Of a stretch of DNA of 64,000 nucleotides, positions 2,373 to 58,636 are shown in pieces (the stretch's first letter is position 1; every line of letters begins with the position of its first letter). The translations under genes were made by a program, and so were the position numbers. The stretch comes from Naegleria gruberi. Its lineage: Eukaryota. The notes beneath the pieces were generated by a model. That model was not told the origin of the DNA, searched no databases, and saw only the letters and a list, made by a program, of their open reading frames with translations. Location: assembly GCA_000004985.1 (NCBI GenBank), contig GG738860.1; one strand, written 5' to 3'.

Positions 2373-3641
2373 TTATAAGGATGTTTCTGCAATAATTCTA
2401 TCGAGACTGTGGGCGAAAGAATTCAAGGTAAAGTTATCGATCACTCTCTGTCTTGAACGTGTTCCATAGTTGGCTCTTTCTTGAGCGCTCATGGAAAAGA
2501 ATTGAACAATGTTGAGGCCAAAGTTTTCGATAATTTCATCCTCGTTGAGATTATCCATAACGGCCAATAGACCTGTCGATTCATGAACAATACTTTCCTT
2601 TGGTCCTCCACTTCTCAATGCACAAACACATCTTCCACAATACATGGCCTCAACTGGAACAATACCAAAATGTTCTCCCTGTGGAGTGTAGGCCACTACA
2701 GTGCAATATTTCAACAAGACATATCTCTCAATTTCATTAAATGATGGAACATAAATTGCATTCTCTTGGACATTGTACTTGGCTACCAATTGTTTCAATT
2801 CATCCAAAACTTGAATATTTTCAGGAACTCTTGGATCATAACCTCCAGCAAGAATGAGTAAGGCGTCTGGGAATCTAGGCTTGACATACTTGGCAAATGA
2901 GTGAACCAGCAAGGCAATATTCTTCTTCTTTTCAAATCTATTGATGGATACAACACTGAATTCACTGTCCATTATTCTCTTATAGAATGAACACTTTTCC
3001 AATTCTTCCTCAGATGGTTGAACATCGTAGGATGAAACATTGATTGGTGGATATAAAATTTCAACTTGCTTATTAGAGAGCTTTTTAAATGATTCATAGA
3101 AAATTTGTTTGGTAAATCCAGAATTTACACTAATAGAATGAGCCATTCCAGTTGTAATTTCCTCAAAATAATCGAATGGAATTCTATATAATTTCTTCAA
3201 TAATGACAAGTTACTGTCCCATCTCACCAACAATTTATCAGGAAAATGACAGTAAAATACAATTTTAGCCTTTGGAAATAATAATTTCAAGAGTGGAATA
3301 TGATAACTAATTTGATCAACAATAATCACATCATAATTTTCATGAGAATGATTCAAATACATTCTAATAGTACAATAAAACATTCTTAAAATTGCAAAGA
3401 AAATATGAAATAAACCAAATATTGTTCTCGGAAGAAAATCTCCATATGAAATTACATCCAAAGTTCCATCATTGGTTTCTGAGAAGGAATGTTTAGGATC
3501 GTGATGAGAGGTAAATATCGTAACCTTGTGTCCAATAACCTTTTTTAATCCAACAGCAGCATCCACAATCAATCGTTCAGCTCCTCCGATACCCAAGTCC
3601 GGATGAGTAAAGGCAATATTAAGTGATTTGTTCTTCTTCAT
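2373..3641 (-). CDS. ALG2: alpha-1,3/1,6-mannosyltransferase ALG2 (GT4)
   Basis: NIAFTHPDLGIGGAERLIVDAA, ...VFYCHFPDKLL..., RFEKKKNIALL... and EHFGIVPVEAM are near-collinear with yeast Alg2p. Start assigned to MKKNK (3641) by alignment with the yeast N-terminus. The track's longer ORF to 3683 reads into the retroelement TSD. Confidence 0.85.
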   Translation of the reverse strand: MKKNKSLNIAFTHPDLGIGGAERLIVDAAVGLKKVIGHKVTIFTSHHDPKHSFSETNDGTLDVISYGDFLPRTIFGLFHIFFAILRMFYCTIRMYLNHSHENYDVIIVDQISYHIPLLKLLFPKAKIVFYCHFPDKLLVRWDSNLSLLKKLYRIPFDYFEEITTGMAHSISVNSGFTKQIFYESFKKLSNKQVEILYPPINVSSYDVQPSEEELEKCSFYKRIMDSEFSVVSINRFEKKKNIALLVHSFAKYVKPRFPDALLILAGGYDPRVPENIQVLDELKQLVAKYNVQENAIYVPSFNEIERYVLLKYCTVVAYTPQGEHFGIVPVEAMYCGRCVCALRSGGPKESIVHESTGLLAVMDNLNEDEIIENFGLNIVQFFSMSAQERANYGTRSRQRVIDNFTLNSFAHSLDRIIAETSL

Positions 3642-3655
3642 TTTTTTTAAATTTG
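3640..3655. repeat. 16-bp target-site duplication, 5' copy (ATTTTTTTTAAATTTG)
   Basis: Identical 16-mer recurs at 6442..6457, flanking the RT/RNaseH element. Confidence 0.55.
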
Positions 3656-6441
3656 AGCTCAAACGAAAAGTCAACCCAACCAATCAGACTTCCAAATTCA
3701 CAGAAGAATCAACTCACTCCCAATACATAGACTCATCAAGGAAATCAATGTACTCACATTCGAATATTCAAATAATAATAAGCAACAAACACTAGATGAA
3801 CTGAATAAGAAGAAAGATGAACTGAAATACAAACAGAAGGAATTTTTTAAGAAAGAGAGAGATAGATGGCTACATATGATTAACAATACAAGTATTGGAT
3901 TTCTATATAGATTTGATGCAGATCTGAACACCAAGAATATCAATTGGAAAAATCTACCAGACAGCGTAAACAAAGATAGCACTCTCCAATTCTTCACACA
4001 GAAATTCAAGAAAGAATATGAAGAAATCAAAATCAAACTCCCAACATCAACAGTCAAAGAAGGTCCACAAGAGATCACAATTAACAAAGATGATATTCTA
4101 AGCACACTCAAGAGACTCAAATCTAAATCTACAGGCACAGACTTTATTACAAATGACTTACTCAAGGAAATGACAGAGACACAAGCAACACAATTAGCAA
4201 TAGAATTTAATAAGATGATTAGTGAAACAAAGGATATACCAATAATAATGAAAGAAGGTTGGATCAAATTAATCCCAAAGAAAGACTCTATTGTAACACA
4301 CAAAGACATTCGTCCTATCACAATAATGAGTACACTATACAGACTACTATTTAACATCATAGCAAGGAAAATAGGTAAATGGGCAAAAGATAACATCAAT
4401 ATTAGACAACAAGCATTCACATCTAACAGAGAAGTTAACAACCATATTCTAGTAATCCAAGCATTAAGAGTCAAATACAAGAAAACAAATGCATTTGTAA
4501 TCACCAACTTGGACATAGAAAATGCATATGACGGTGTAGAACATTGTGTCCTTAGATTAGCTATGAAACATTGTAAATTCCCACTAATGTATAACACAAT
4601 CACCCAAATTATAATAGATTACCAAATCGAGAATTGGAAAATACCTGGCACACCATCATTTAAAATTGAAGAAATAGGAACTCTTAATTTTGCTGATGAC
4701 TGCTCATTAGTAACACAACCCAACAAGAAACACAATACCAAACTCAAACAACTGAACAAATGGATAGGGAATCTCAAAATGAAAATCAATGCTTCTAAAT
4801 CAATAACTTCTGTCACACCGGAAAGAATAGCCCTTAAAGACTTCACAGTTAAGCTTGACGATACGTTAATACCAAGACAAACCAATCAAAGAACATTAGG
4901 AAACTACATCACAGAAGACCATCTCTTCACAAAAGAAATTGACAAAAGAGAAGCTAGAGTAACACAAATACTAAAAATACTTCCAATCCATTTGATAGAA
5001 CCAGAAAATCTCAAAAGAATCATAATGGGCAAGACAATTAGTAGTTTTATCCATCTAGCAAGAGGAAATTCAATTTCCAATCCTCGCCTACAAACAATTG
5101 ACTCAACAATTAGGGGTAACCTAAAAAGATCACTGAAGATCGATGCAAAGGTAAAACCATCCACAATGTATGCACAATTCGAAAGAAAAGGACTAGAAAT
5201 TCCAAACCTCGAATACATAGCCAACTCAATCCTTTGCAATAACTTAATCAACAAATTCCACTCAAGTAACCCACTTGTCAGAGAAGCAGTACAGTACGGA
5301 ATTAATAACTGTAACACGAACAAAACAAAACTACACAACATATTTGAAAAATTCCACTACATCCTAAAACAACAACACAAACTTACCACAACAATATGTA
5401 ACACCAATCATCAACTTCTGGAAAAGGAAAAAGATGAACAATACTCCTACTCAGAATTCACAATATGGACTGATGGATCCAAATCAGAAAACAAAGTAGG
5501 ATTCAGTATAATCATTCAGAACAACGAATTTACAAAAGGATACAAATACAAGCTCCACTCATACCACTCAAACAACATGGCTGAATTATCAGCAATTACA
5601 ACAGCACTACACATCATACCACCAAACAGCAATGCAAAGGTACTCACTGACAGTGAAATAGCAGTCAAAATAATTAACAACACAAATTACAAAGGTCAAT
5701 TTAAGCAAATCAAAGATGAAATTACCAACCTCATCAGCACTAAAAAACTTCAAGCATCCATCGAATGGACAAAAGCTCATACAGGAATAACAGATGGAAA
5801 TAACTACGCTGATAAGAAAGCCAAACAAGCCTCAAGAATAGGACATCGAATTGCACCCCAACATCTACTAACTCAAGGGCAATTAATTATCACCAATTCG
5901 AAAAAAGTTTGGAAAAGTAGAATCAAAGGAGTACTTAGTGAAAAGCTCTACAATCAAGGAACATCCGAACTCATCAACAGAACAAATCTCAATTACCTCA
6001 AAGAACATACCACCCCAGCTCACAAATACTCAATCTGGAGGCTCATGATAAATGGACACTTAAGAAGCCTCATAGTAGACAACCCACAATGCCCAACATG
6101 TAACAAAAACCTTGACACAGAACACCTCTTCATAGCATGCCCAGAAATGAATTCAGCTAGAAACTGGATGATTGAAGAAATCAAAAAAAATACCAATCTC
6201 GAACCAGTACTAAGCACAGAGAGGACAGAAATATTAACACCAAACTCATTCCAACTAAATATCTTTGATATTCTGACGGAACCTATTCAAGGTATTATCA
6301 AAGAACAATGGCCCAAGATACAAGGAGGCCTCTCACTTTTTGGAGGAAGAGTACAAAAACAATACAACAAAATCTTAAAAATTCAATAAGACGTTCCAAA
6401 TGGACGAACCCGTCGGGTTCATTCGATTAATAAACGTTTAA
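3656..6441 (+). mobile_element. 5'-truncated non-LTR (LINE) retrotransposon with RT + RNase H + C-terminal zinc knuckle
   Basis: ORF 3876..6389 carries RT motifs (RPITIMSTLYR, LDIENAYDGV, NFADDCSLV), an RNase H domain (IWTDGSKS, AELSAITTAL, TDSEIAV, WTKAHTGITDGNNYADKKAKQA) and a CPTC...HLFIACPE zinc knuckle. No AP-endonuclease domain, so it is 5'-truncated. Bounded by the 16-bp direct repeat. 3' end is ...AATAAACGTTTAA with no poly-A. Confidence 0.8.
3876..6389 (+). CDS. retrotransposon pol-like ORF2 (reverse transcriptase / RNase H)
   Basis: 837-aa ORF with RT and RNase H motifs as listed for the element. Confidence 0.85.
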   Translation: MINNTSIGFLYRFDADLNTKNINWKNLPDSVNKDSTLQFFTQKFKKEYEEIKIKLPTSTVKEGPQEITINKDDILSTLKRLKSKSTGTDFITNDLLKEMTETQATQLAIEFNKMISETKDIPIIMKEGWIKLIPKKDSIVTHKDIRPITIMSTLYRLLFNIIARKIGKWAKDNINIRQQAFTSNREVNNHILVIQALRVKYKKTNAFVITNLDIENAYDGVEHCVLRLAMKHCKFPLMYNTITQIIIDYQIENWKIPGTPSFKIEEIGTLNFADDCSLVTQPNKKHNTKLKQLNKWIGNLKMKINASKSITSVTPERIALKDFTVKLDDTLIPRQTNQRTLGNYITEDHLFTKEIDKREARVTQILKILPIHLIEPENLKRIIMGKTISSFIHLARGNSISNPRLQTIDSTIRGNLKRSLKIDAKVKPSTMYAQFERKGLEIPNLEYIANSILCNNLINKFHSSNPLVREAVQYGINNCNTNKTKLHNIFEKFHYILKQQHKLTTTICNTNHQLLEKEKDEQYSYSEFTIWTDGSKSENKVGFSIIIQNNEFTKGYKYKLHSYHSNNMAELSAITTALHIIPPNSNAKVLTDSEIAVKIINNTNYKGQFKQIKDEITNLISTKKLQASIEWTKAHTGITDGNNYADKKAKQASRIGHRIAPQHLLTQGQLIITNSKKVWKSRIKGVLSEKLYNQGTSELINRTNLNYLKEHTTPAHKYSIWRLMINGHLRSLIVDNPQCPTCNKNLDTEHLFIACPEMNSARNWMIEEIKKNTNLEPVLSTERTEILTPNSFQLNIFDILTEPIQGIIKEQWPKIQGGLSLFGGRVQKQYNKILKIQ

Positions 6442-6457
6442 ATTTTTTTTAAATTTG
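6442..6457. repeat. 16-bp target-site duplication, 3' copy
   Basis: Exact copy of 3640..3655. Confidence 0.55.
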
Positions 6458-6728
6458 TTTTTAGAATTTAAATTGTTGATAAAATTGTGAATTGAATTGT
6501 AAAATTTGAGAGGAAGGAATTTCGTGTTTTTTAAAATACGTGTTTTCAAATGATCGTTTTGAAAATGAGTTTTAAATGATGTGAAGTGAACTTGAGATTT
6601 TTTGTAAATCTTATTAAGGTTGTTGAGAAATTGCCTTATTCGTTATTAATTTAGTTTTGTTATGTTCAATTTTAAAGATAAAAGTAAAAAGTACCAAATA
6701 TTCAAGATTTTTATTTCAAAATTAAAAT

Positions 6729-7193
6729 CTATTTAGATTCGAATTCCTCAGGATAGTTCTCTTTACAAAAACATAAATTAGATGGTTTTGGAGGATTAAT
6801 CGGCGACTTTTCTGTAAATTCATCCAACAATGATTCGATTTCAATTGCTCTAACAACCTCATCCTCCTTAACTTCATAACAATTTTCCTTATTTTGTACA
6901 TGAAGAGTGACAGTTGGCGGCTCTTTAGTTATCCACAGAAAGATTGAATCTCTATTTCTCAAATCCCTCCAAAATCCATCCTCTGTGAAATTCTTATTGT
7001 TGATAATATCTTTCCCTTCATGAACTCCCAAACTTTGCAAGAATTCACTAACTTTCTGTGTTGTTTCAAATGAAAATTTGGCTAATAAGGTATCGCCATC
7101 ATTAGCATGACCTCCGTATGCTCTAACGAATCGAAAATATCTCATTCTATTGGTCCATGATACAAGCTCTTCCTTTGAATGAAAACGATACAT
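6729..7193 (-). CDS. hypothetical protein (154 aa)
   Basis: Complete ORF with an A at -3 of the ATG and non-repetitive composition. No recognisable domain. Confidence 0.35.
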   Translation of the reverse strand: MYRFHSKEELVSWTNRMRYFRFVRAYGGHANDGDTLLAKFSFETTQKVSEFLQSLGVHEGKDIINNKNFTEDGFWRDLRNRDSIFLWITKEPPTVTLHVQNKENCYEVKEDEVVRAIEIESLLDEFTEKSPINPPKPSNLCFCKENYPEEFESK

Positions 7194-7516
7194 GTATTGT
7201 TCAAATTGATTGACTTGAGAAGATTTTTCTTGATTGGAACGACATGAAGTGGAGAAGAATCGAAGATTTTTTAAGAAGAAATGCTCTTATGAGACAATGC
7301 TCGATAGATAGCAACGTGATGATTGCTTTTTATCATTTTTTTTTGAAATTGCAACAGATTAATTGTTGATAAGGCAACTCTATGGCAACTCAGTTTGATA
7401 TTACTCAACATCATTGAATGGATCACGCAAGAGTATATTGCGTCTATTTACAAAAGCACACATATTGTTGTTTTTGTAAAAAACTGTTCCCAGTTGAATT
7501 ATGTGTAACAGTGTTA

Positions 7517-7589
7517 GGGGATGTAGCTCACATGGTAGAGCGCTTCTTTAGCATGGAAGAGGTACGGGGATCGATACCCCGCATCTCCA
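7517..7589 (+). tRNA. tRNA-Ala(AGC): tRNA-Ala (anticodon AGC)
   Basis: Cloverleaf folds by hand. Acceptor GGGGATG/CATCTCC carries the G3:U70 Ala identity pair. D arm GCTC/GAGC. Anticodon loop TTAGCAT. T stem CGGGG/CCCCG. Position 54 appears to be A rather than T, which is unusual. Confidence 0.8.
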
Positions 7590-8754
7590 CTATCTTTTTA
7601 TTTAGTAAATGAATTCATTGTGATTGCAGATAGGTGCAATAAGGCTTAAACATATGGTGCCATACTTTTTCCAAGGAGAATACATGAAATGACTTTATGT
7701 AATGGAGTAAAACAAGTTAGAAAAATTAGAATATTGAGCTAATAACTTTGGAAATTAGTTTTCACTTATTTTGAATTGTAATATTATTGTTTTTCATTTT
7801 GTAATTTTGGACGGGAAGCCTGCCAGGAATATGGCGACAATCCCGCTACAGTCTTTGACTGTATGAACAGTGAAGGCAACTAATCTATTGATTGTTGGTT
7901 CAGTAAGTTATTGTTTAGAAAAGCTTGCTACGTGACCCTCTGTTTATCATCTTTGAATTTTATCTATTTAGAAAGAGAAACTTGTGGTTGATCAATAAAC
8001 GATCAAATTTCGAATTTGAGTCTTCAAATAATACTATTATTATTCAAAAGAAGACAAACACTACACTGAAGGAACGGTTGCTTGGCTAGTCATAATCTTC
8101 ATAATGTTATGATCAATTACCACATAAGGAAGGTGTTGTGATTTTTCTATTAATTGAAAAAAGAAGGAACATTCGTTAACAATTTTCTATGGATTTCTTG
8201 ATTAATAAAAAGAAAGTGTTGATAATGTTCTATTAATTGATAAAAAGTTAAGGTACCAATCTGCATGTTCACAAATCCCCCATTCACTAACCATGGCTGG
8301 TAAGGAATGCAGCAATCATCTATGAACGAGGAAACCTACAACGAAGCATGTTTCCAGTTCGATATCATGCTCAAGATATGTGACTACAGAGTCTTCATCT
8401 TGGTTAACCTCAAAGGTCAGATTGACTCAAAAAAGTCGAGTTTATGTATTCCTACAGAAAAGATCCTGTAGAAGTACAGTCAATGGTTTTAGCAATCTTG
8501 CATCCTCAATGATATTATATCGGTTTTGAAAGTGTGGATTGTTGTCAGGAAAAGTTATGGTAAAAAAATTCAATGAGAGATTCAAGAAAATATTTGAATG
8601 GACAGTATTCCAGTGAATTAGCACCTATTATTCTGATAACAAAGGAATCTCAACTTACTTCATTAACAATTCAGACTCGTTATTTCTGAAATAATAATAT
8701 TGAAACAATATGTGTTTTCATGAACAAAAGGAGAAATTTTAATACATTAGTATA

Positions 8755-8827
8755 GCTGGCGTAGCTCAGTCGGTAGAGCGTTGGTCTAATAAGCCATTGG
8801 TCGCCGGTTCGATCCCGTCCGTCAGCA
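8755..8827 (+). tRNA. tRNA-Ile(AAU): tRNA-Ile (anticodon AAT)
   Basis: Acceptor GCTGGCG/CGTCAGC. D arm GCTC-AGTCGGTA-GAGC. Anticodon loop CTAATAA. T arm GCCGG-TTCGATC-CCGTC. Confidence 0.8.
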
Positions 8828-17597: not shown

Positions 17598-17671
17598 GCC
17601 GTCATAGCTCAGTTGGATAGAGCACAGGACTTCTAATCCTGGGGTCGTGGGTTCGAGCCCCATTGTCGGTA
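17598..17671 (+). tRNA. tRNA-Arg(UCU): tRNA-Arg (anticodon TCT)
   Basis: D arm GCTC-AGTTGGATA-GAGC. Anticodon stem CAGGA/TCCTG with loop CTTCTAA. T arm GTGGG-TTCGAGC-CCCAT. Acceptor stem has 6 of 7 pairs. Confidence 0.75.
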
Positions 17672-42070: not shown

Positions 42071-42418
42071 NNNNNNNNNNNNNNNNNNNNNNNNNNNNNN
42101 NNNNNNNNNNNNNNNNNNNNNNNNNNNNNNNNNNNNNNNNNNNNNNNNNNNNNNNNNNNNNNNNNNNNNNNNNNNNNNNNNNNNNNNNNNNNNNNNNNNN
42201 NNNNNNNNNNNNNNNNNNNNNNNNNNNNNNNNNNNNNNNNNNNNNNNNNNNNNNNNNNNNNNNNNNNNNNNNNNNNNNNNNNNNNNNNNNNNNNNNNNNN
42301 NNNNNNNNNNNNNNNNNNNNNNNNNNNNNNNNNNNNNNNNNNNNNNNNNNNNNNNNNNNNNNNNNNNNNNNNNNNNNNNNNNNNNNNNNNNNNNNNNNNN
42401 NNNNNNNNNNNNNNNNNN
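42071..42418. other. assembly gap (348 N)
   Basis: Run of N characters in the sequence. Confidence 1.
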
Positions 42419-43414: not shown

Positions 43415-44728
43415 ATGAGCAAACAATCAGAAGGACAAATTGATCATCACGAAAATCACAGAGATTCAGTTCTAATACTTCTCGATCATGATCCAAATAA
43501 TTATCTGAATCAAATGCTAAACGAAACCATGACCGCCAACAAACACTACACTCTCGGAAAGTTTAACTATTTATTTGAGATGAGTTTTTCAATGCGATAT
43601 CAACCAATTCCTATAGAATTTGCATTGGATAGAGAAGTGGTGTGCACTTATTTACATTTAAATTTATTTGGATTTTTGCAACAGAGAACAAAGGTTAGAG
43701 AATGGAATGCCAAGTCAATCATGTTGGAATTGGTCAAGTTTCATGGATTGCAATTGATGAATGTTGGAATGGAATTGAGAGATGATAGGGATATTGTGAT
43801 GGAGGCTGTCAAGAATTGTCCATTTGCTATAAAACATGCTTCGGAAAGGTTGCAGAATGATAGAGAAATTGTTTGCATTGCCATGAAACAAGATCCACTT
43901 ATTTATGAATATATTGGACATGACGCAAAGCACGATCCACAGTTTATAGAGATGGTACTGAGTAAGGATGGATTGTCATTGAATTTGGTACCTGGAAGTT
44001 TGAGTGTTAATGATCCAAATTTTGTGAATTATGTGAAAATTGCTATTCGACAGAATCCATGTGCTATATTGCTTGCCCCAGACCATATTCAACAAGATGG
44101 AGAAATATTTATGGATTGTTTGAGAAGAAATCCCTTATTGGTTGTTTTGATTTCAGATTCGAATATGAGCATCGACAAGAAAACTGCCATTTATTTAGTG
44201 AGTCAAGATGAGAGAACTTATCAATTCCTGCCCGAGACATTGAAACAAGATCAAGATGTAGTTATAGCCATGTTAAAAAAGAATATCAATGCAGTAGATC
44301 TGCTCGGACAAGACAACATGTCCAATGAGGAACTAATGATTCCAGTTTTGAAAATATTTCCACAATGTTTCAATCTTCTGCCATTCAACTTGAAAGTAAG
44401 AGATACAATCATTGAAGCAACACATAGTGGAGATGATAGTGAATTTTCAGAATATGACATTGAACACGAAGAATTTGCTGCACTATATTTGGAAAAGAGC
44501 AAAGTTAAATCATGGCTCTCCACTAGAAAAAATGTAGCCACATCAACTCAAGTTAATACCACAGAAATCTCCATAACAACGCCTTATAAGGAAAATGCAA
44601 GACTTATCATGCATTTTGGAAATTCCTATTTTCGAAATAGAGTAGTAAACCTCAATAATACTAAGTATACATCAAATCCAGAATCAAAATTTGGAAGATT
44701 TCCCATTAAAGTTGATACCATTGAATAA
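43415..44728 (+). CDS. DUF4116-repeat protein
   Basis: Repeats of the form DREIVxxAVKxxPxAxKxASExLQNDREIV (DUF4116-type). Confidence 0.65.
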   Translation: MSKQSEGQIDHHENHRDSVLILLDHDPNNYLNQMLNETMTANKHYTLGKFNYLFEMSFSMRYQPIPIEFALDREVVCTYLHLNLFGFLQQRTKVREWNAKSIMLELVKFHGLQLMNVGMELRDDRDIVMEAVKNCPFAIKHASERLQNDREIVCIAMKQDPLIYEYIGHDAKHDPQFIEMVLSKDGLSLNLVPGSLSVNDPNFVNYVKIAIRQNPCAILLAPDHIQQDGEIFMDCLRRNPLLVVLISDSNMSIDKKTAIYLVSQDERTYQFLPETLKQDQDVVIAMLKKNINAVDLLGQDNMSNEELMIPVLKIFPQCFNLLPFNLKVRDTIIEATHSGDDSEFSEYDIEHEEFAALYLEKSKVKSWLSTRKNVATSTQVNTTEISITTPYKENARLIMHFGNSYFRNRVVNLNNTKYTSNPESKFGRFPIKVDTIE

Positions 44729-49300: not shown

Positions 49301-51682
49301 ATGATTAGACACCTTCTGCATGGATGTAGGAATCGCCTTCTCACACCTAAAAGCAATATCTTCTTTTCTCTTCCGAAAGTAAATTCTTGTAGAAGAAACC
49401 TTTCTTCCATAATTGACAATCCAGAATATTTGAAAATGGCTACCACTGAAAATTCACTTGAATTTTTGCAACATTCAGATAAAATCGACATTGATCGTGA
49501 ATTATTAAAAGCTGCTCTTATGGGTCATGGAGAGAATTTGAAATTCTGCCCTTTCGAATATAGAAATGATATTGAATTGGTAATGTTGGCTGTGCAAAAT
49601 AATCGATTTGAGATTGCTTTAGAATTTGCCTCTGAAGAAATGAAGGATAATGAACAAGTAGTTGAGGAATCAATGAAAGGTGTTCCAAGTAGTTTCAGAT
49701 TTGCATCTGAAAGGATTCGAAATCAGAAAGAATTTGCATTGAAGGCAATTTCATATTTGCCATCAAATATATTCTATCTTTCGGAAAGATTACAAAATGA
49801 TTGGGATATTATTGAGAAAACTTTAGAATTGGATGGTGAATTAATTCTTTCTCTTCAATTTAGAAGAGAAGAAATGATGCAAAATAAGGAAATACTTTTA
49901 AAAATATTGAAATCGTGTTCCTTGTATTGCAGGAGATGTATTTTCAGATATTTGAAGAGTACTGATTCTGCCTTATTGAAAGATCAAGTAGTTTTGCAAA
50001 ATTTCGTACTTCCAAAGATATTAACTGATGGGTGGAATGTTAAAAATATTGACACTGGAAAAGAGGATGTTAAAATGGTTGTTGAAACTGGTAATTTGAA
50101 AATTGATGGTCCACTAATTCTCAAACAATTAGAGTTATTCAAATATGCACCCTTAGAAATACGATCTGATATTGAACTGGTTAAAAAATTTGTTTCAAAA
50201 AGAGGTGAATTGTTAGAGTTTGTTGATGAACCGCTTAAGGATGATTACAATGTGGTTTTACGTGCCGTTTGTTCTACTTATAATGCTCTCCGGTTTGCTA
50301 GTGAGAGGTTGAAAAACAACCAAGCAATTTGTCTTGCAGCAATGAAAGCCAATCCAAAACAGTTCATCCATGTGTCAGATAGCATAAAATCAAACAGAGA
50401 GTTCATTCTCGATTTATTAGATGACTGTGGAAATATTTTCCTTTTTAGGGGAGATTATTTTGGATCCATATTTGAGTATATGGACGACAAACTCAAATCA
50501 GATTTGAGTTTTGTAAAAGAAGTTTTTGGAAAGAATATTAACTCTATCGTGAAATATATTTCAAACATTGATGGAGAATTATTTGAAAGGATTCTTCAAA
50601 GCTGTTCATTACATTACATTCCAAAATCAGTTAATATTCAAGCGTACCGAGGAAAAATTGTTGAATATTTGAGTAAATACCCCTATAGGTATTCTGATGT
50701 TGTGAGTCATTTTCCAGATGATAGAGAATTAGCTCTCAAATTTATTGAACTCTCACCTAATTGTTTCAGAAAGTTAAGCTATCGACTTCAAAATGATCCT
50801 GAAATTGCAGGCATAGTATTCTCAGGAACAGGTTTTATACATTTCAAAGAAGATATGGACAGGGGATTAATTATTAAAAAGCTGAAGGAGAATGCCTACA
50901 GTTTGTGGTCATTGCCAGAAAAATATCACCAAGATAGAGAAATTGTTTTAAATGCAGTGAAAAAGGGAGGCAGCATTGCTATAACAAAATACTTTAGAGA
51001 AGATAGAGAAATTGTGATGGAGGCCTTAAACAACACCAACTTTGATTTGAGTAGTATTTCTTCAAATCTGAGAAAAGATAAGGAGATTGTAATGAAAGCA
51101 ATTGAAAATAATTCTTATAATTTTTGCTATGCTGACAAGGTATTCAGGTCAGATAAGGAATTTATTATGAAACTATTTGATAATCCAAAGTTTGCACTAC
51201 ATAGTCCATGTATTTCTTCCTTGGACATCAAGTTGAGGGATGACAATGAAATTGCCTCAATGTTTCTGAAACGATGTCCATCACACTTTGTCTACTTGAG
51301 TGAGAGATTGAGAAATGACCCTTCCATTGCAATTCCTCTCATTCTTGATAATCCCTACTTGTTGCCTCATTCTCCATTGTTTAGCCAAGACAAAAAATTG
51401 AAATTGCAAATTGTTGAAAATGGTTATTTCTTTCATTTATTTACAGAATTCCATGAAGATCTAGATATTCTTCGAGTATTCTTCTCCAAATATCCAAAAG
51501 AAGCAGCTGAATTCTGCCAACATTACAATTCAGAAGAGTGGACCAAACACAAAGACCTTGTTGCACTAGTTTTAGCTCATTATCCCGATGCTTATTATAA
51601 AGCAAGCAAAGAGATTCAAAATGATCCAGAAATTATTCGGCTTTATAATAAGAGCAGGAAGTGCCTTGTACTGCTGCAATGA
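49301..51682 (+). CDS. DUF4116-repeat protein (793 aa), paralog of 43415..44728
   Basis: About 15 tandem repeats with conserved RxDxEhVhxAV...ASExLxNDxEI. Confidence 0.65.
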   Translation: MIRHLLHGCRNRLLTPKSNIFFSLPKVNSCRRNLSSIIDNPEYLKMATTENSLEFLQHSDKIDIDRELLKAALMGHGENLKFCPFEYRNDIELVMLAVQNNRFEIALEFASEEMKDNEQVVEESMKGVPSSFRFASERIRNQKEFALKAISYLPSNIFYLSERLQNDWDIIEKTLELDGELILSLQFRREEMMQNKEILLKILKSCSLYCRRCIFRYLKSTDSALLKDQVVLQNFVLPKILTDGWNVKNIDTGKEDVKMVVETGNLKIDGPLILKQLELFKYAPLEIRSDIELVKKFVSKRGELLEFVDEPLKDDYNVVLRAVCSTYNALRFASERLKNNQAICLAAMKANPKQFIHVSDSIKSNREFILDLLDDCGNIFLFRGDYFGSIFEYMDDKLKSDLSFVKEVFGKNINSIVKYISNIDGELFERILQSCSLHYIPKSVNIQAYRGKIVEYLSKYPYRYSDVVSHFPDDRELALKFIELSPNCFRKLSYRLQNDPEIAGIVFSGTGFIHFKEDMDRGLIIKKLKENAYSLWSLPEKYHQDREIVLNAVKKGGSIAITKYFREDREIVMEALNNTNFDLSSISSNLRKDKEIVMKAIENNSYNFCYADKVFRSDKEFIMKLFDNPKFALHSPCISSLDIKLRDDNEIASMFLKRCPSHFVYLSERLRNDPSIAIPLILDNPYLLPHSPLFSQDKKLKLQIVENGYFFHLFTEFHEDLDILRVFFSKYPKEAAEFCQHYNSEEWTKHKDLVALVLAHYPDAYYKASKEIQNDPEIIRLYNKSRKCLVLLQ

Positions 51683-51733: not shown

Positions 51734-53605
51734 ATGGCGCCACTCGTTTTTATCGATGATGTTCTCCACCTCATATTTACGTCCTTTCTTGATGACGAGT
51801 CTATGGTAAAATATGGTTTTTCAGTCTGTAAACAATGGAATAATATGGTTAGATCAATTCCGATTGACTTGATATTGGAAAAGTATAAATTGGCTAGGTT
51901 GGTCAAATCCTCTCCGAATTTAAACCTTCGATCATTGGTTTTAAATCAGGCTATCGGTGAAGATATGCGGGAGAGAATTCAACAATGTAGTACCATGTCC
52001 ACTCTACAAGTACTGGTATTGGATGGTGTCATGGATTTTTCATCCATGATGAAATTAATTACGAGTCCGGTAATGTCAAATCTTGTGGATGTTAGATTTA
52101 ATGGTAGTTATAATAAGAAGGATAAGCTAATTGCTCCTTGCCCTCAAATGAAGGCTTTGAAGAGTTTGGGTTTAGATGGAACTGTTGATGAATTGTTAGT
52201 GTCCATTTCAAAAAACGAATACTTGGAAAATTTAACAGAGTTGGATTTGGATATGGCAAGTTATACAGATAAGGGAATTGTAGCTTTGGTTTCTAATAAT
52301 TCTCATGTTAAAAATTTAACAAGTTTGAGTTGTGAATCAAGTCAATTAACTGGTACAGCTATACGTGCTATTGCCAATTCTCCTAATATGAAAAATTTGA
52401 CCAAACTAAATATTGGCTACAATTACAAGGGAGTGGAAGGAATACGAGATATCATTCAAAGTGAATACATGAAGAATCTCCAAATTCTCCATCTCACTGA
52501 GGGTTTCGAGCTTCTTGTCTCTGAAAATTCACAAATCAAGAATTTGAAAAAGCTCAAAATGATGGGACATCGTTTGAACGAGGATATCATCAAAATTGCC
52601 AACTGCCCTCATATGAATCAAATTGAAAAATTGGGAAGATATTTTGGTACTTCTACTAGTGCTTTGGAAGCCTCAGGTGATACTGCTCTAGCTGAGAGTA
52701 AATACATTACCAAATTGAAAAAGTACTATTTGGAATTTGAAGAAACAGATGAACCAACCATGTTCATTACCAGCCCTAATTCTGAAAATGTGCAGAGTAT
52801 CTACGGAGCTGTCAACAGCTTCAAAATGGCTAAAGCCCTTGCCGAATCTCTTTATTTGAAAAATCTATCCCGTTTGCACATTTATGGACAAGATGAAGAG
52901 AATATTTTTGAAATATTATCAGAAAGCAAGAATTTGAAAGAAAATTTACAATCTCTTTCCTTTAGATATACAGGGAATGAAATGATGTCTTCATCTTGCA
53001 AGGTTATATCTCATATTGGAAAATTTTCAAAATTGAAAAAGTTAGATCTTGCATTTATCAACATTGGATTGGACGGAATGAATTTAATCATTTCAAGTGC
53101 ATTTATCAAGAATTTGAGCAAGCTCTCCCTGACTGAATGTTGTATTGACAGCGATTGCCTAAAGGCTCTTTCTGAGTGTCAAGATTTCCAACTCACTAGT
53201 TTATCCTTGGGAAATAACGAGAAGCTTAGAGGGCAAATTCATTTACTCTGTGAAATGACAAGTTTAACATGTTTGCAAGAATTAAATTTGAAGAGTTGCG
53301 ACCTGTCTGATGAGGACATTTTGAGCATTTCACAATGTAAATACTTGACCAATCTTAGACATCTCAACGTAAGATTTAATAATGTATCCAATGAAGCTTT
53401 AAAATTCATATTCCTTTCAGATAACATGCAAAAATTGTCCATGTTAGATATGTTCCGTAGCAACATAACCATGACACAGGAATTATCAGATTTAATACTT
53501 GAAAATGTTTCTAGATTCACCAATTTATCATTTTTAAGTATTCCAAGACAGGGCAAATTATCAAACAAGCTTGAAGAACAATTGGATAAATTTGGAATTT
53601 CCTAA
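51734..53605 (+). CDS. F-box / leucine-rich-repeat (RNI-like) protein
   Basis: N-terminal F-box-like FIDDVLHLIFTSFLDDESMVKYGFSVCKQWNNMV, then about 20 LRRs (NLTxLxL...). Confidence 0.65.
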   Translation: MAPLVFIDDVLHLIFTSFLDDESMVKYGFSVCKQWNNMVRSIPIDLILEKYKLARLVKSSPNLNLRSLVLNQAIGEDMRERIQQCSTMSTLQVLVLDGVMDFSSMMKLITSPVMSNLVDVRFNGSYNKKDKLIAPCPQMKALKSLGLDGTVDELLVSISKNEYLENLTELDLDMASYTDKGIVALVSNNSHVKNLTSLSCESSQLTGTAIRAIANSPNMKNLTKLNIGYNYKGVEGIRDIIQSEYMKNLQILHLTEGFELLVSENSQIKNLKKLKMMGHRLNEDIIKIANCPHMNQIEKLGRYFGTSTSALEASGDTALAESKYITKLKKYYLEFEETDEPTMFITSPNSENVQSIYGAVNSFKMAKALAESLYLKNLSRLHIYGQDEENIFEILSESKNLKENLQSLSFRYTGNEMMSSSCKVISHIGKFSKLKKLDLAFINIGLDGMNLIISSAFIKNLSKLSLTECCIDSDCLKALSECQDFQLTSLSLGNNEKLRGQIHLLCEMTSLTCLQELNLKSCDLSDEDILSISQCKYLTNLRHLNVRFNNVSNEALKFIFLSDNMQKLSMLDMFRSNITMTQELSDLILENVSRFTNLSFLSIPRQGKLSNKLEEQLDKFGIS

Positions 53606-58555: not shown

Positions 58556-58636
58556 GTTGAGGTGGCCGAGTGGTTAAGGCGCCAGCCTGCTAAGTTGGTG
58601 GAGTAATCCGCGTGGGTTCGAATCCCATCCTCAACG
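58556..58636 (+). tRNA. tRNA-Ser(GCU): tRNA-Ser (anticodon GCT)
   Basis: Acceptor GTTGAGG/CCTCAAC. 3-bp D stem. Anticodon loop CTGCTAA. Long variable arm TGGAGTAATCCGC. T arm GTGGG-TTCGAAT-CCCAT. Confidence 0.8.

Follow-up and report, generated by a model that had tools for sequence, protein, structure and literature searches.

In human L1, a long interspersed nuclear element (LINE), a loose homopolymer-type target motif sets where a new copy lands, and most copies are 5'-truncated and dead on arrival. L1 insertions beside genes can rewire or disrupt transcription, antisense-promoter effects included. Other LINEs are target-specific: R1 and R2 are found in ribosomal DNA, TRAS and SART are telomeric, SLACS, CZAR and CRE reside in spliced-leader genes, and the TRE elements of Dictyostelium lie near tRNA genes. 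The present analysis deals with a 64-kb stretch of the genome of Naegleria gruberi strain NEG-M (hereafter, the window). In it, a defective LINE copy sits on the start codon of ALG2, the gene for an alpha-1,3/1,6-mannosyltransferase, and is arranged head-to-head with this gene.

The Naegleria element is like the non-LTR (long terminal repeat) LINEs that combine an APE (apurinic/apyrimidinic endonuclease) type nuclease with ribonuclease H (RNase H), namely the I/Tad1/Ingi/Nimb-like and some of the L1-like lineages. As in those, a first open reading frame (ORF1) is followed by ORF2, with an N-terminal APE-like endonuclease, a reverse transcriptase (RT), RNase H and a C-terminal Cys/His motif. 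A variable target-site duplication (13-16 bp here), frequent 5' truncation, the lack of terminal repeats and a 5' end in the style of an internal promoter are also shared. Unlike those LINEs, the Naegleria copies carry no poly(A) or simple-repeat tail, such a tail being typical of many clades and not of all. The target also has the opposite polarity. The L1 target is TTTT/AA (the slash marks the cut, here and below), whereas the Naegleria sites begin with T7-10 and the primer strand is the A-run.

A loose homopolymer target, mostly dead 5'-truncated copies and insertions beside genes are common to this element and human L1. What differs is that the motif of the Naegleria element coincides with the start-codon context of its host, which would put insertions on the ATG, head-to-head with the gene. 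An antisense promoter of the L1 kind cannot be invoked for the copy in the window, since the 5' end of the element is missing from it. With the target-specific LINEs, the element would share a non-random site and a fixed geometry relative to a host feature. Unlike theirs, its target is a simple A/T run and no specific multicopy gene, and one of its four sites with a readable 5' side lies off a start codon. The ALG2 protein is like the known glycosyltransferase family 4 (GT4) ALG2 of the dolichol-linked N-glycan pathway and shows nothing unusual; only its upstream context is altered.

The element itself is of an ordinary kind, a further LINE copy with a 5' truncation whose lineage is heterolobosean; a literature search found no description of Naegleria LINE families or of their target sites. 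The noteworthy part is the position on the ALG2 start codon in a reference genome, along with a hint of a family-wide preference for A-runs. At this locus, the reference strain of a model amoeboflagellate would provide a naturally arisen allele with a displaced promoter for an N-glycosylation gene that is normally essential.

The insertion at ALG2 and its empty site

Coordinates refer to the window unless a contig is named. Its identity with the NEG-M annotation was confirmed by protein comparison, in which three window proteins matched exactly (EFC46157.1, EFC46149.1 and EFC46027.1), all of them on a single scaffold of 536,960 bp. The contigs compared with it are L001, a 2,483-bp N. gruberi-like metagenome contig (ENA ERZ929261, run ERR1078381); L002 and L003, which encode P0121, the 1,227-aa ORF2 protein of the element, L002 being N. 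gruberi-like and a short-read metagenome assembly; L006 from N. fowleri; and L007 from N. lovaniensis. The features of the locus are as follows.

2373..3641, minus strand: ALG2, a single intact ORF of 422 codons plus stop (2373-2375), from Pfam, homologs and alignment
3640..3655, plus strand: left copy of the target-site duplication, ATTTTTTTTAAATTTG, an exact match to the right copy
3656..6441, plus strand: defective LINE copy of 2,786 bp with partial RT, RNase H, a C-terminal Cys/His motif (CPTC...H...C) and a 52-nt 3' untranslated region (UTR), from alignment to L002, Pfam and absence from L001
3657..6389, plus strand: remnant ORF2 frame of 910 codons plus stop (stop 6387-6389), open from the 5' junction
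4577..4587 (~4581), plus strand: junction of an in-frame 126-bp deletion with a 4-nt microhomology, CCAC, from alignment to P0121 and L002
6429..6441, plus strand: 3' end of the element, AATAAACGTTTAA, the same end as in L002 and L003
6442..6457, plus strand: right copy of the target-site duplication, ATTTTTTTTAAATTTG, an exact match to the left copy
6458..6728, minus strand: native upstream intergenic region of ALG2, 271 bp long and bounded by the stop codon of NAEGRDRAFT_65995, contiguous with the ATG in L001

The contig L001 represents the empty site. Its positions 1-1145 correspond to 7599-6442 of the window and its positions 1130-2437 to 3655-2347, and the 16-nt overlap between the two alignments is the 16-mer itself. 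When 3656-6457 is taken out, the window is colinear with L001 at 98% identity over 2,453 bp. A near-identical ALG2 is encoded on this contig, and its junction reads ...cttcttcATTTTTTTTAAATTTGtttttagaa..., with the 16-mer present only once. Since L001 has one 16-mer and no insert, the repeat is regarded as a true target-site duplication and the insertion as polymorphic. On this alignment, the insertion is 3656-6441 plus one 16-mer. The two duplication copies in the window are identical to each other, and no third match to ATTTTTTTTAAATTTG was found on either strand of the 64 kb with one mismatch allowed (two found, against 0.14 expected from shuffles). When the 422-aa and 436-aa ALG2 products and the 837-aa element ORF were looked up by exact match, no other assembly or transcript of the filled allele was retrieved. 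We hold with high confidence that 3656-6441 is a genuine, young and defective LINE insertion made by target-primed reverse transcription.

On the ALG2 side, the initiator ATG is the CAT at 3639-3641, and the first base of the insert, 3656, lies 15 nt upstream of its A, with 14 nt in between. These 14 nt form the A-rich leader CAAATTTAAAAAAA, which remains intact beside the ATG. Read on the minus strand, the left duplication copy is CAAATTTAAAAAAAAT, that is, the leader followed by the A and the T of the ATG. Both glycosyltransferase domains are found in the protein (GT4 N-terminal Glyco_transf_4, PF13439, 1.4e-12; Glycos_transf_1, PF00534, 1.2e-23), and its EX7E motif, EHFGIVPVE, is invariant across the alignment. 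Homologs named ALG2 are 43-76% identical (N. fowleri 75%, Willaertia magna 64%, fungi and animals 43-50%), and the alignment with N. fowleri, W. magna and named ALG2 proteins runs from the first residues. The reference annotation, EFC46148.1/D2VAV7 (ALG2 in UniProt), has the same start, MKKNKSLNIAF. Its model of 409 aa removes a 39-nt GT..AG 'intron' of 13 codons, KCSFYKRIMDSEF (2957-2995, minus strand). The stretch is kept as coding in the ALG2 of N. fowleri, Willaertia and other Naegleria, which makes the intron a probable artefact of annotation and gives a protein of 422 aa. A second annotated ALG2 was not found in NEG-M, as the cluster of EFC46148.1 holds no other N. gruberi member and the next matches are at most 76% identical.

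These results bear out most of an earlier note on this stretch, made from the letters alone. It had reported the 16-bp direct repeat at 3640..3655 and 6442..6457, which is exact at both places. Its left copy was said to overlap the AT of the ALG2 ATG, and it does begin at 3640, inside the CAT. The distance of 15 bp from insertion to start codon agrees with the count given above, as does the minus-strand start, the N-terminus being colinear with other Naegleria and eukaryotic ALG2. The ORF is intact as the note had claimed, with 422 aa and both domains, and the head-to-head arrangement with an antisense element holds. The note had wondered whether the 16-mer is a common motif; it occurs only twice in the window. 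It had suggested a check for an element-free allele, which was found in L001 with its single 16-mer, and the polymorphic allele that it named as one outcome is thereby realized at the species level. One statement needs to be amended, namely that the promoter and 5' UTR of ALG2 had been replaced. Antisense element sequence does lie upstream of the gene now, but the native upstream DNA was displaced by 2,802 bp (it is now 2.8 kb from the ATG), and the 14-nt leader was preserved. The original ALG2 promoter is presumably held in 6458-6728.

The inserted copy and its relatives

The full-length element is ~5.15 kb long and consists of a 13-nt 5' UTR, ORF1 and then ORF2, which includes the APE endonuclease, RT, RNase H and Cys/His motif. 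ORF1 codes for a 462-aa coiled-coil protein and lies upstream of P0121 on both L002 and L003. The element starts with TCGCGCCAAAAAAATG, in which the 13-nt leader precedes the ATG of ORF1 (L002 413-440; L003 1-30), and the independently assembled L003 begins exactly at this start. The start of ORF1 is A7ATG, an A-run context that is shared with host genes. In P0121, Pfam finds Exo_endo_phos, RVT_1 (E 5e-26) and RNase_H; among its relatives, the endonuclease domains PF14529/PF03372 are found. The nearest solved structures to the RT are those of R2 RTs (E ~1e-13).

In sequence, this group of elements stands isolated. Only 14 proteins fall below E 1e-30 among 1.84 billion representatives; the closest relatives are unnamed heterolobosean proteins, and those with a name belong to N. 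fowleri, N. lovaniensis and Willaertia magna. In N. fowleri, annotated fragments of the family and its relatives number at least 30. The 3' end of the relatives in N. fowleri and N. lovaniensis reads ...AATAAATATTTTT(T/A)CA. The N. fowleri copy on L006 is 5'-truncated and is without ~270 bp of the endonuclease region in comparison with the N. lovaniensis copy. JGI metagenome contigs were scanned for the element 3' end and for ORF2 relatives, with no match.

The copy in the window aligns with the full-length copy on L002 over 2658-3589 at 99.5% and over 3709-5573 at 99.0%, which amounts to ~99.2% overall. Thus, its 5' ~2.2 kb is absent, including the 5' UTR, ORF1 and ORF2 residues 1 to ~275 with the endonuclease, and in the protein alignment it begins at P0121 residue ~276. 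No microhomology was found when it was looked for at the 5' junction at 3656. The internal deletion has removed 42 codons (PNLTTF...GVPQGCPLA), so that the RT motif B segment GVPQGCPLA is lost. RVT_1 is still recognized by Pfam (E 1.6e-14, the match being split by the deletion), and RNase_H is also present. The earlier note had described a 2.8-kb RT/RNase H LINE fragment between the repeats; the segment is 2,786 bp long and carries both domains in a single frame. Its view of a 5'-truncated non-LTR element is likewise upheld by the L002 alignment, which starts only at 2658.

The remnant frame is 95-99% identical to P0121. Over ~2.7 kb, it differs from L002 in 20 codons (11 synonymous and 9 nonsynonymous) and by one extra codon. 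This near-identity, along with the identical duplication copies, indicates that the copy is very young. It thus attests very recent activity of the family in N. gruberi, the genome of which is described as poor in transposable elements. At the 3' end of the copy, a canonical AATAAA stands 7 nt ahead of the last base, and the T-run of the right duplication copy follows at once. A poly(A) or simple-repeat tail is lacking; the copies end in ...AATAAACGTTTAA and target DNA follows directly. A repeat search of the window reported no long terminal repeats for the element, and a hairpin fold of the 3' UTR was not significant (z = -1.5). Judged by its sequence, the copy is a dead-on-arrival member of a heterolobosean non-LTR (LINE) retrotransposon family.

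It is carried in the annotation as a host gene. The remnant 3876-6389 is listed as EFC46016.1/D2VAV8, a 'ribonuclease H' of 536 aa, and at least two further C-terminal fragments of the element are present in the NEG-M annotation (EFC46958.1 and EFC37826.1). Look-ups of these two, aimed at their junctions, returned no record.

Another protein, P0138 (49 aa), is grouped with the LINE ORF2 by clustering at 90%. It was rejected as an element copy, as it comes from the unrelated, tRNA-packed contig L005 (Logan SRR29074717). This contig appears to be bacterial or phage-derived, and the grouping of P0138 is an oddity of database clustering.

Target sites and start codons

Junctions of the element and its relatives were compared at five sites in three Naegleria species (the window, L002, L003, L006 and L007), and the 5' side is readable in four of them. 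Apart from the window, the sites are the following.

L006, N. fowleri, 3049-3061 and 6841-6853: exact 13-bp duplication, ATTTTTTTCATGC
L007, N. lovaniensis, 2680-2694 and 7118-7132: exact 15-bp duplication, TTTTTTTGTTCTATT, intergenic, 40 bp upstream of a Mitofilin gene
L002, full-length copy: 5' flank ...GCC-CAT-T9-CTAGA, then the first base of the element; 3' flank ATTTTTT
L003: 3' flank ATTTTTTTAATT

All five readable insertion sites open with (A)T7-10, and the strand that primes reverse transcription would therefore end in A7-10(T). The mutual homology of the N. fowleri and N. lovaniensis copies stops at the T-run. On L006, the left duplication starts at the A of a CAT, the start codon of a gene of 1,923 aa on the minus strand (L006 1-3050), which is again head-to-head with the element. 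From the CAT in the L002 flank, an ORF of at least 132 codons extends on the minus strand, and the flank ATTTTTTTTTTCTAGA has 16 nt, the same length as the duplication in the window. A homology search with this flanking ORF gave no database homolog, for which reason its start codon is regarded as unconfirmed. Thus, among the four sites whose 5' side can be read, two lie on annotated start codons and a third on the first ATG of the unconfirmed ORF.

The host sequence offers a simple background for this pattern. Runs of at least seven A are rare, the window having 47 on its two strands; T comes next in 34 and TG in 20, and ORFs of at least 100 aa start at 13. In other words, 20 of the 34 AAAAAAAT sites are AAAAAAATG (for example, at 43415, 49301, 51734 and 61610 on the plus strand and at 1143, 3641 and 29954 on the minus strand). 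Several start contexts in the window share TTTAAAAAAATG, and A7ATG is also found at the ALG2 of another Naegleria species. The A-run start context might serve as an initiator-like element, with 5' UTRs that are very short. Since the A-runs of N. gruberi are mostly start-codon leaders, an element that targets A-runs would often land on AT/G. With a base rate of ~0.43, three start codons out of four are unremarkable (p ≈ 0.2), and hence no specificity beyond the A-run is needed. The position at the ALG2 start probably follows from this target preference.

The anatomy of the junctions allows the following course of events to be proposed. The endonuclease of the element would nick the sense strand of ALG2 at 5'-AAAAAAAAT/G-3', which comprises the A-rich leader and the AT of the start codon. 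The freed 3' end would then prime the synthesis of cDNA on the element RNA, beginning at its 3' end; this RNA has the AATAAA signal and may read into a U-run. Reverse transcription would halt after 2.8 kb, and the second strand would be cut 16 bp away. Filling in of the stagger would duplicate the leader and rebuild the ATG beside the truncated 5' end of the element, the element being antisense to the gene. From the chemistry of target-primed reverse transcription, which we infer for this site from its junctions, the whole geometry would result, with the element antisense, its 5' end at the regenerated ATG and the promoter side of the gene at its 3' end. As A7-10-ATG is a common start context in Naegleria, elements of this group would tend toward start codons.

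Extended to the whole lineage, the proposal is a tentative one, and we consider it rather doubtful. It would hold that in these heterolobosean LINEs the nick falls on the sense strand of a host gene, at A7-10(T)/G, a motif that in Naegleria would be the near-universal A-rich leader plus start codon, and that a large share of them land on start codons, always head-to-head, with a 13-16-bp duplication that rebuilds the ATG and its leader. If the A-run preference is true genome-wide, it would account for the elements being found at start codons and would give a simple case of a gene-proximal insertion bias that arises from a loose endonuclease motif together with the start-codon context of the host. 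If the start-codon niche is true as well, Naegleria genes would tolerate the loss of everything upstream of about -15, or would initiate transcription despite it.

Several points weigh against the account given so far. The target pattern comes from five sites, a small sample, only four of which have a readable 5' side, and one of these four, on L007, is a T-run with no start codon on it. As the flanks of L002 were put together from short reads and the element is multicopy, they might be chimeric. The nick can be placed only to within 1 nt, the last base of the element being an A. The APE match in P0121 is marginal (PF03372, residues 27-221, E 1.9e-5, 25.0 bits against a cutoff of 24.5). The empty site, too, has a flaw: the ALG2 of L001 carries a 1-nt deletion, that is, a frameshift, in an A6 run at codon ~33 (window 3541-3546; L001 ~1240), and because of it, this contig is no proof of a functional element-free allele. 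Past the frameshift, the remaining 329 residues differ by one amino acid, and the lesion is likely to be a homopolymer assembly error or a very recent event.

A different kind of targeting was also considered. Insertion near tRNA genes, as known from the TRE elements of Dictyostelium, was rejected, the nearest tRNA gene being 1.07 kb from the insert. The tRNA genes of the window are listed below.

7517-7590: tRNA-Ala (AGC)
8755-8827: tRNA-Ile (AAT)
17598-17671: tRNA-Arg (TCT)
58556-58636: tRNA-Ser (GCT)

Possible expression of ALG2 next to the element

Two readings of the present state of ALG2 are rated as about equally probable, and they are not mutually exclusive. It may well be, with a chance not far from even, that the filled allele is null or a strong hypomorph and is heterozygous in NEG-M, the assembly having taken the filled haplotype while an element-free homologue supplies ALG2. 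Naegleria is described as mainly a clonal heterozygous diploid (PMC9928731), and a new insertion would therefore be expected to remain heterozygous. The great youth of the insertion speaks for this reading, as do the element-free allele known in the species from L001 and the single ALG2 annotated in NEG-M. Furthermore, the antisense strand of the element would add 53 upstream ATGs and one AATAAA to the leader of any read-through ALG2 transcript. Against this stands the intergenic DNA of L001, which is 2-3% different; it points to another strain and gives no evidence for a NEG-M haplotype. Somewhat under an even chance is given to the reading that the filled allele still expresses ALG2, either from the preserved leader (3642-3655), from just upstream of it or from the adjacent antisense element. 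The core promoters or initiators of Naegleria would then be tiny and AT-rich, and the insertion would be nearly neutral. In its favour, the duplication retains CAAATTTAAAAAAAATG beside the ALG2 ORF, and a context of the TTTAAAAAAATG type stands ahead of many genes in the window. Intergenic spacers go down to 51 bp (ORFs 49301..51682 and 51734..53605), and the 13-nt 5' UTR of the element before A7ATG suggests that transcripts can start very near the ATG. The genes on L006 and L002 also keep open frames despite an element at the equivalent position. However, the promoter of a LINE is internal, and the short UTR thus says little about host genes. The other insertions look young too, so that they give no sign of long-term tolerance, and young repeats of N. 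gruberi tend to be silent and are preferentially marked by 5-methylcytosine and histone H3 lysine 9 trimethylation (PMC12344493).

Two further explanations were weighed. In one of them, ALG2 would be transcribed from its native promoter through the antisense element, which would be spliced out as a 5'-UTR intron at the acceptor-like TTTCGTTTGAG/ on the boundary of element and duplication. An AG does follow a T-rich stretch there (3656-3666, minus strand). No convincing donor site was identified, the antisense AATAAA at 4148 could terminate the transcripts, and the idea is purely a speculation from sequence; we consider it improbable. Still less credence is given to an assembly artefact or a chance match of AT-rich sequence. 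It is true that the 16-mer is AT-rich and of low complexity and that the reference is a Sanger draft of 2010 with gaps, such as the 348 Ns at 42071-42418. But the 16-mer is confined to the two junctions within the window, and homology to the full-length copies starts exactly at 3656. Past 6441, it extends over nothing but the shared ATTTTTT that makes up the first 7 nt of the repeat. Colinearity with the empty allele is exact to the base, and an equivalent architecture is seen in two other species. Both the chance repeat and the assembly artefact were rejected on the evidence of the empty site.

Our best guess from these sequences is that the insertion is heterozygous in the clonal diploid NEG-M or otherwise recent. 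In that case, either an element-free homologue or initiation near the preserved A-rich leader would sustain ALG2 function, or the two would do so together. Strand-specific RNA-seq at 23 °C and 30 °C (PMC12695648) and Nanopore reads (PMC12695648 and PMC12344493) are publicly available. As an element-free allele is known, such RNA-seq, Nanopore and methylome data can address how little upstream DNA a Naegleria gene needs.

A minor observation concerns the neighbour of ALG2 on its upstream side. NAEGRDRAFT_65995 (6729-7193, minus strand) is annotated with 154 aa and is a continuous 227-aa ORF in L001. In NEG-M, its N-terminal extension is broken by two extra bases (~7273-7274), which may reflect a strain difference, a missed intron or a missed start.

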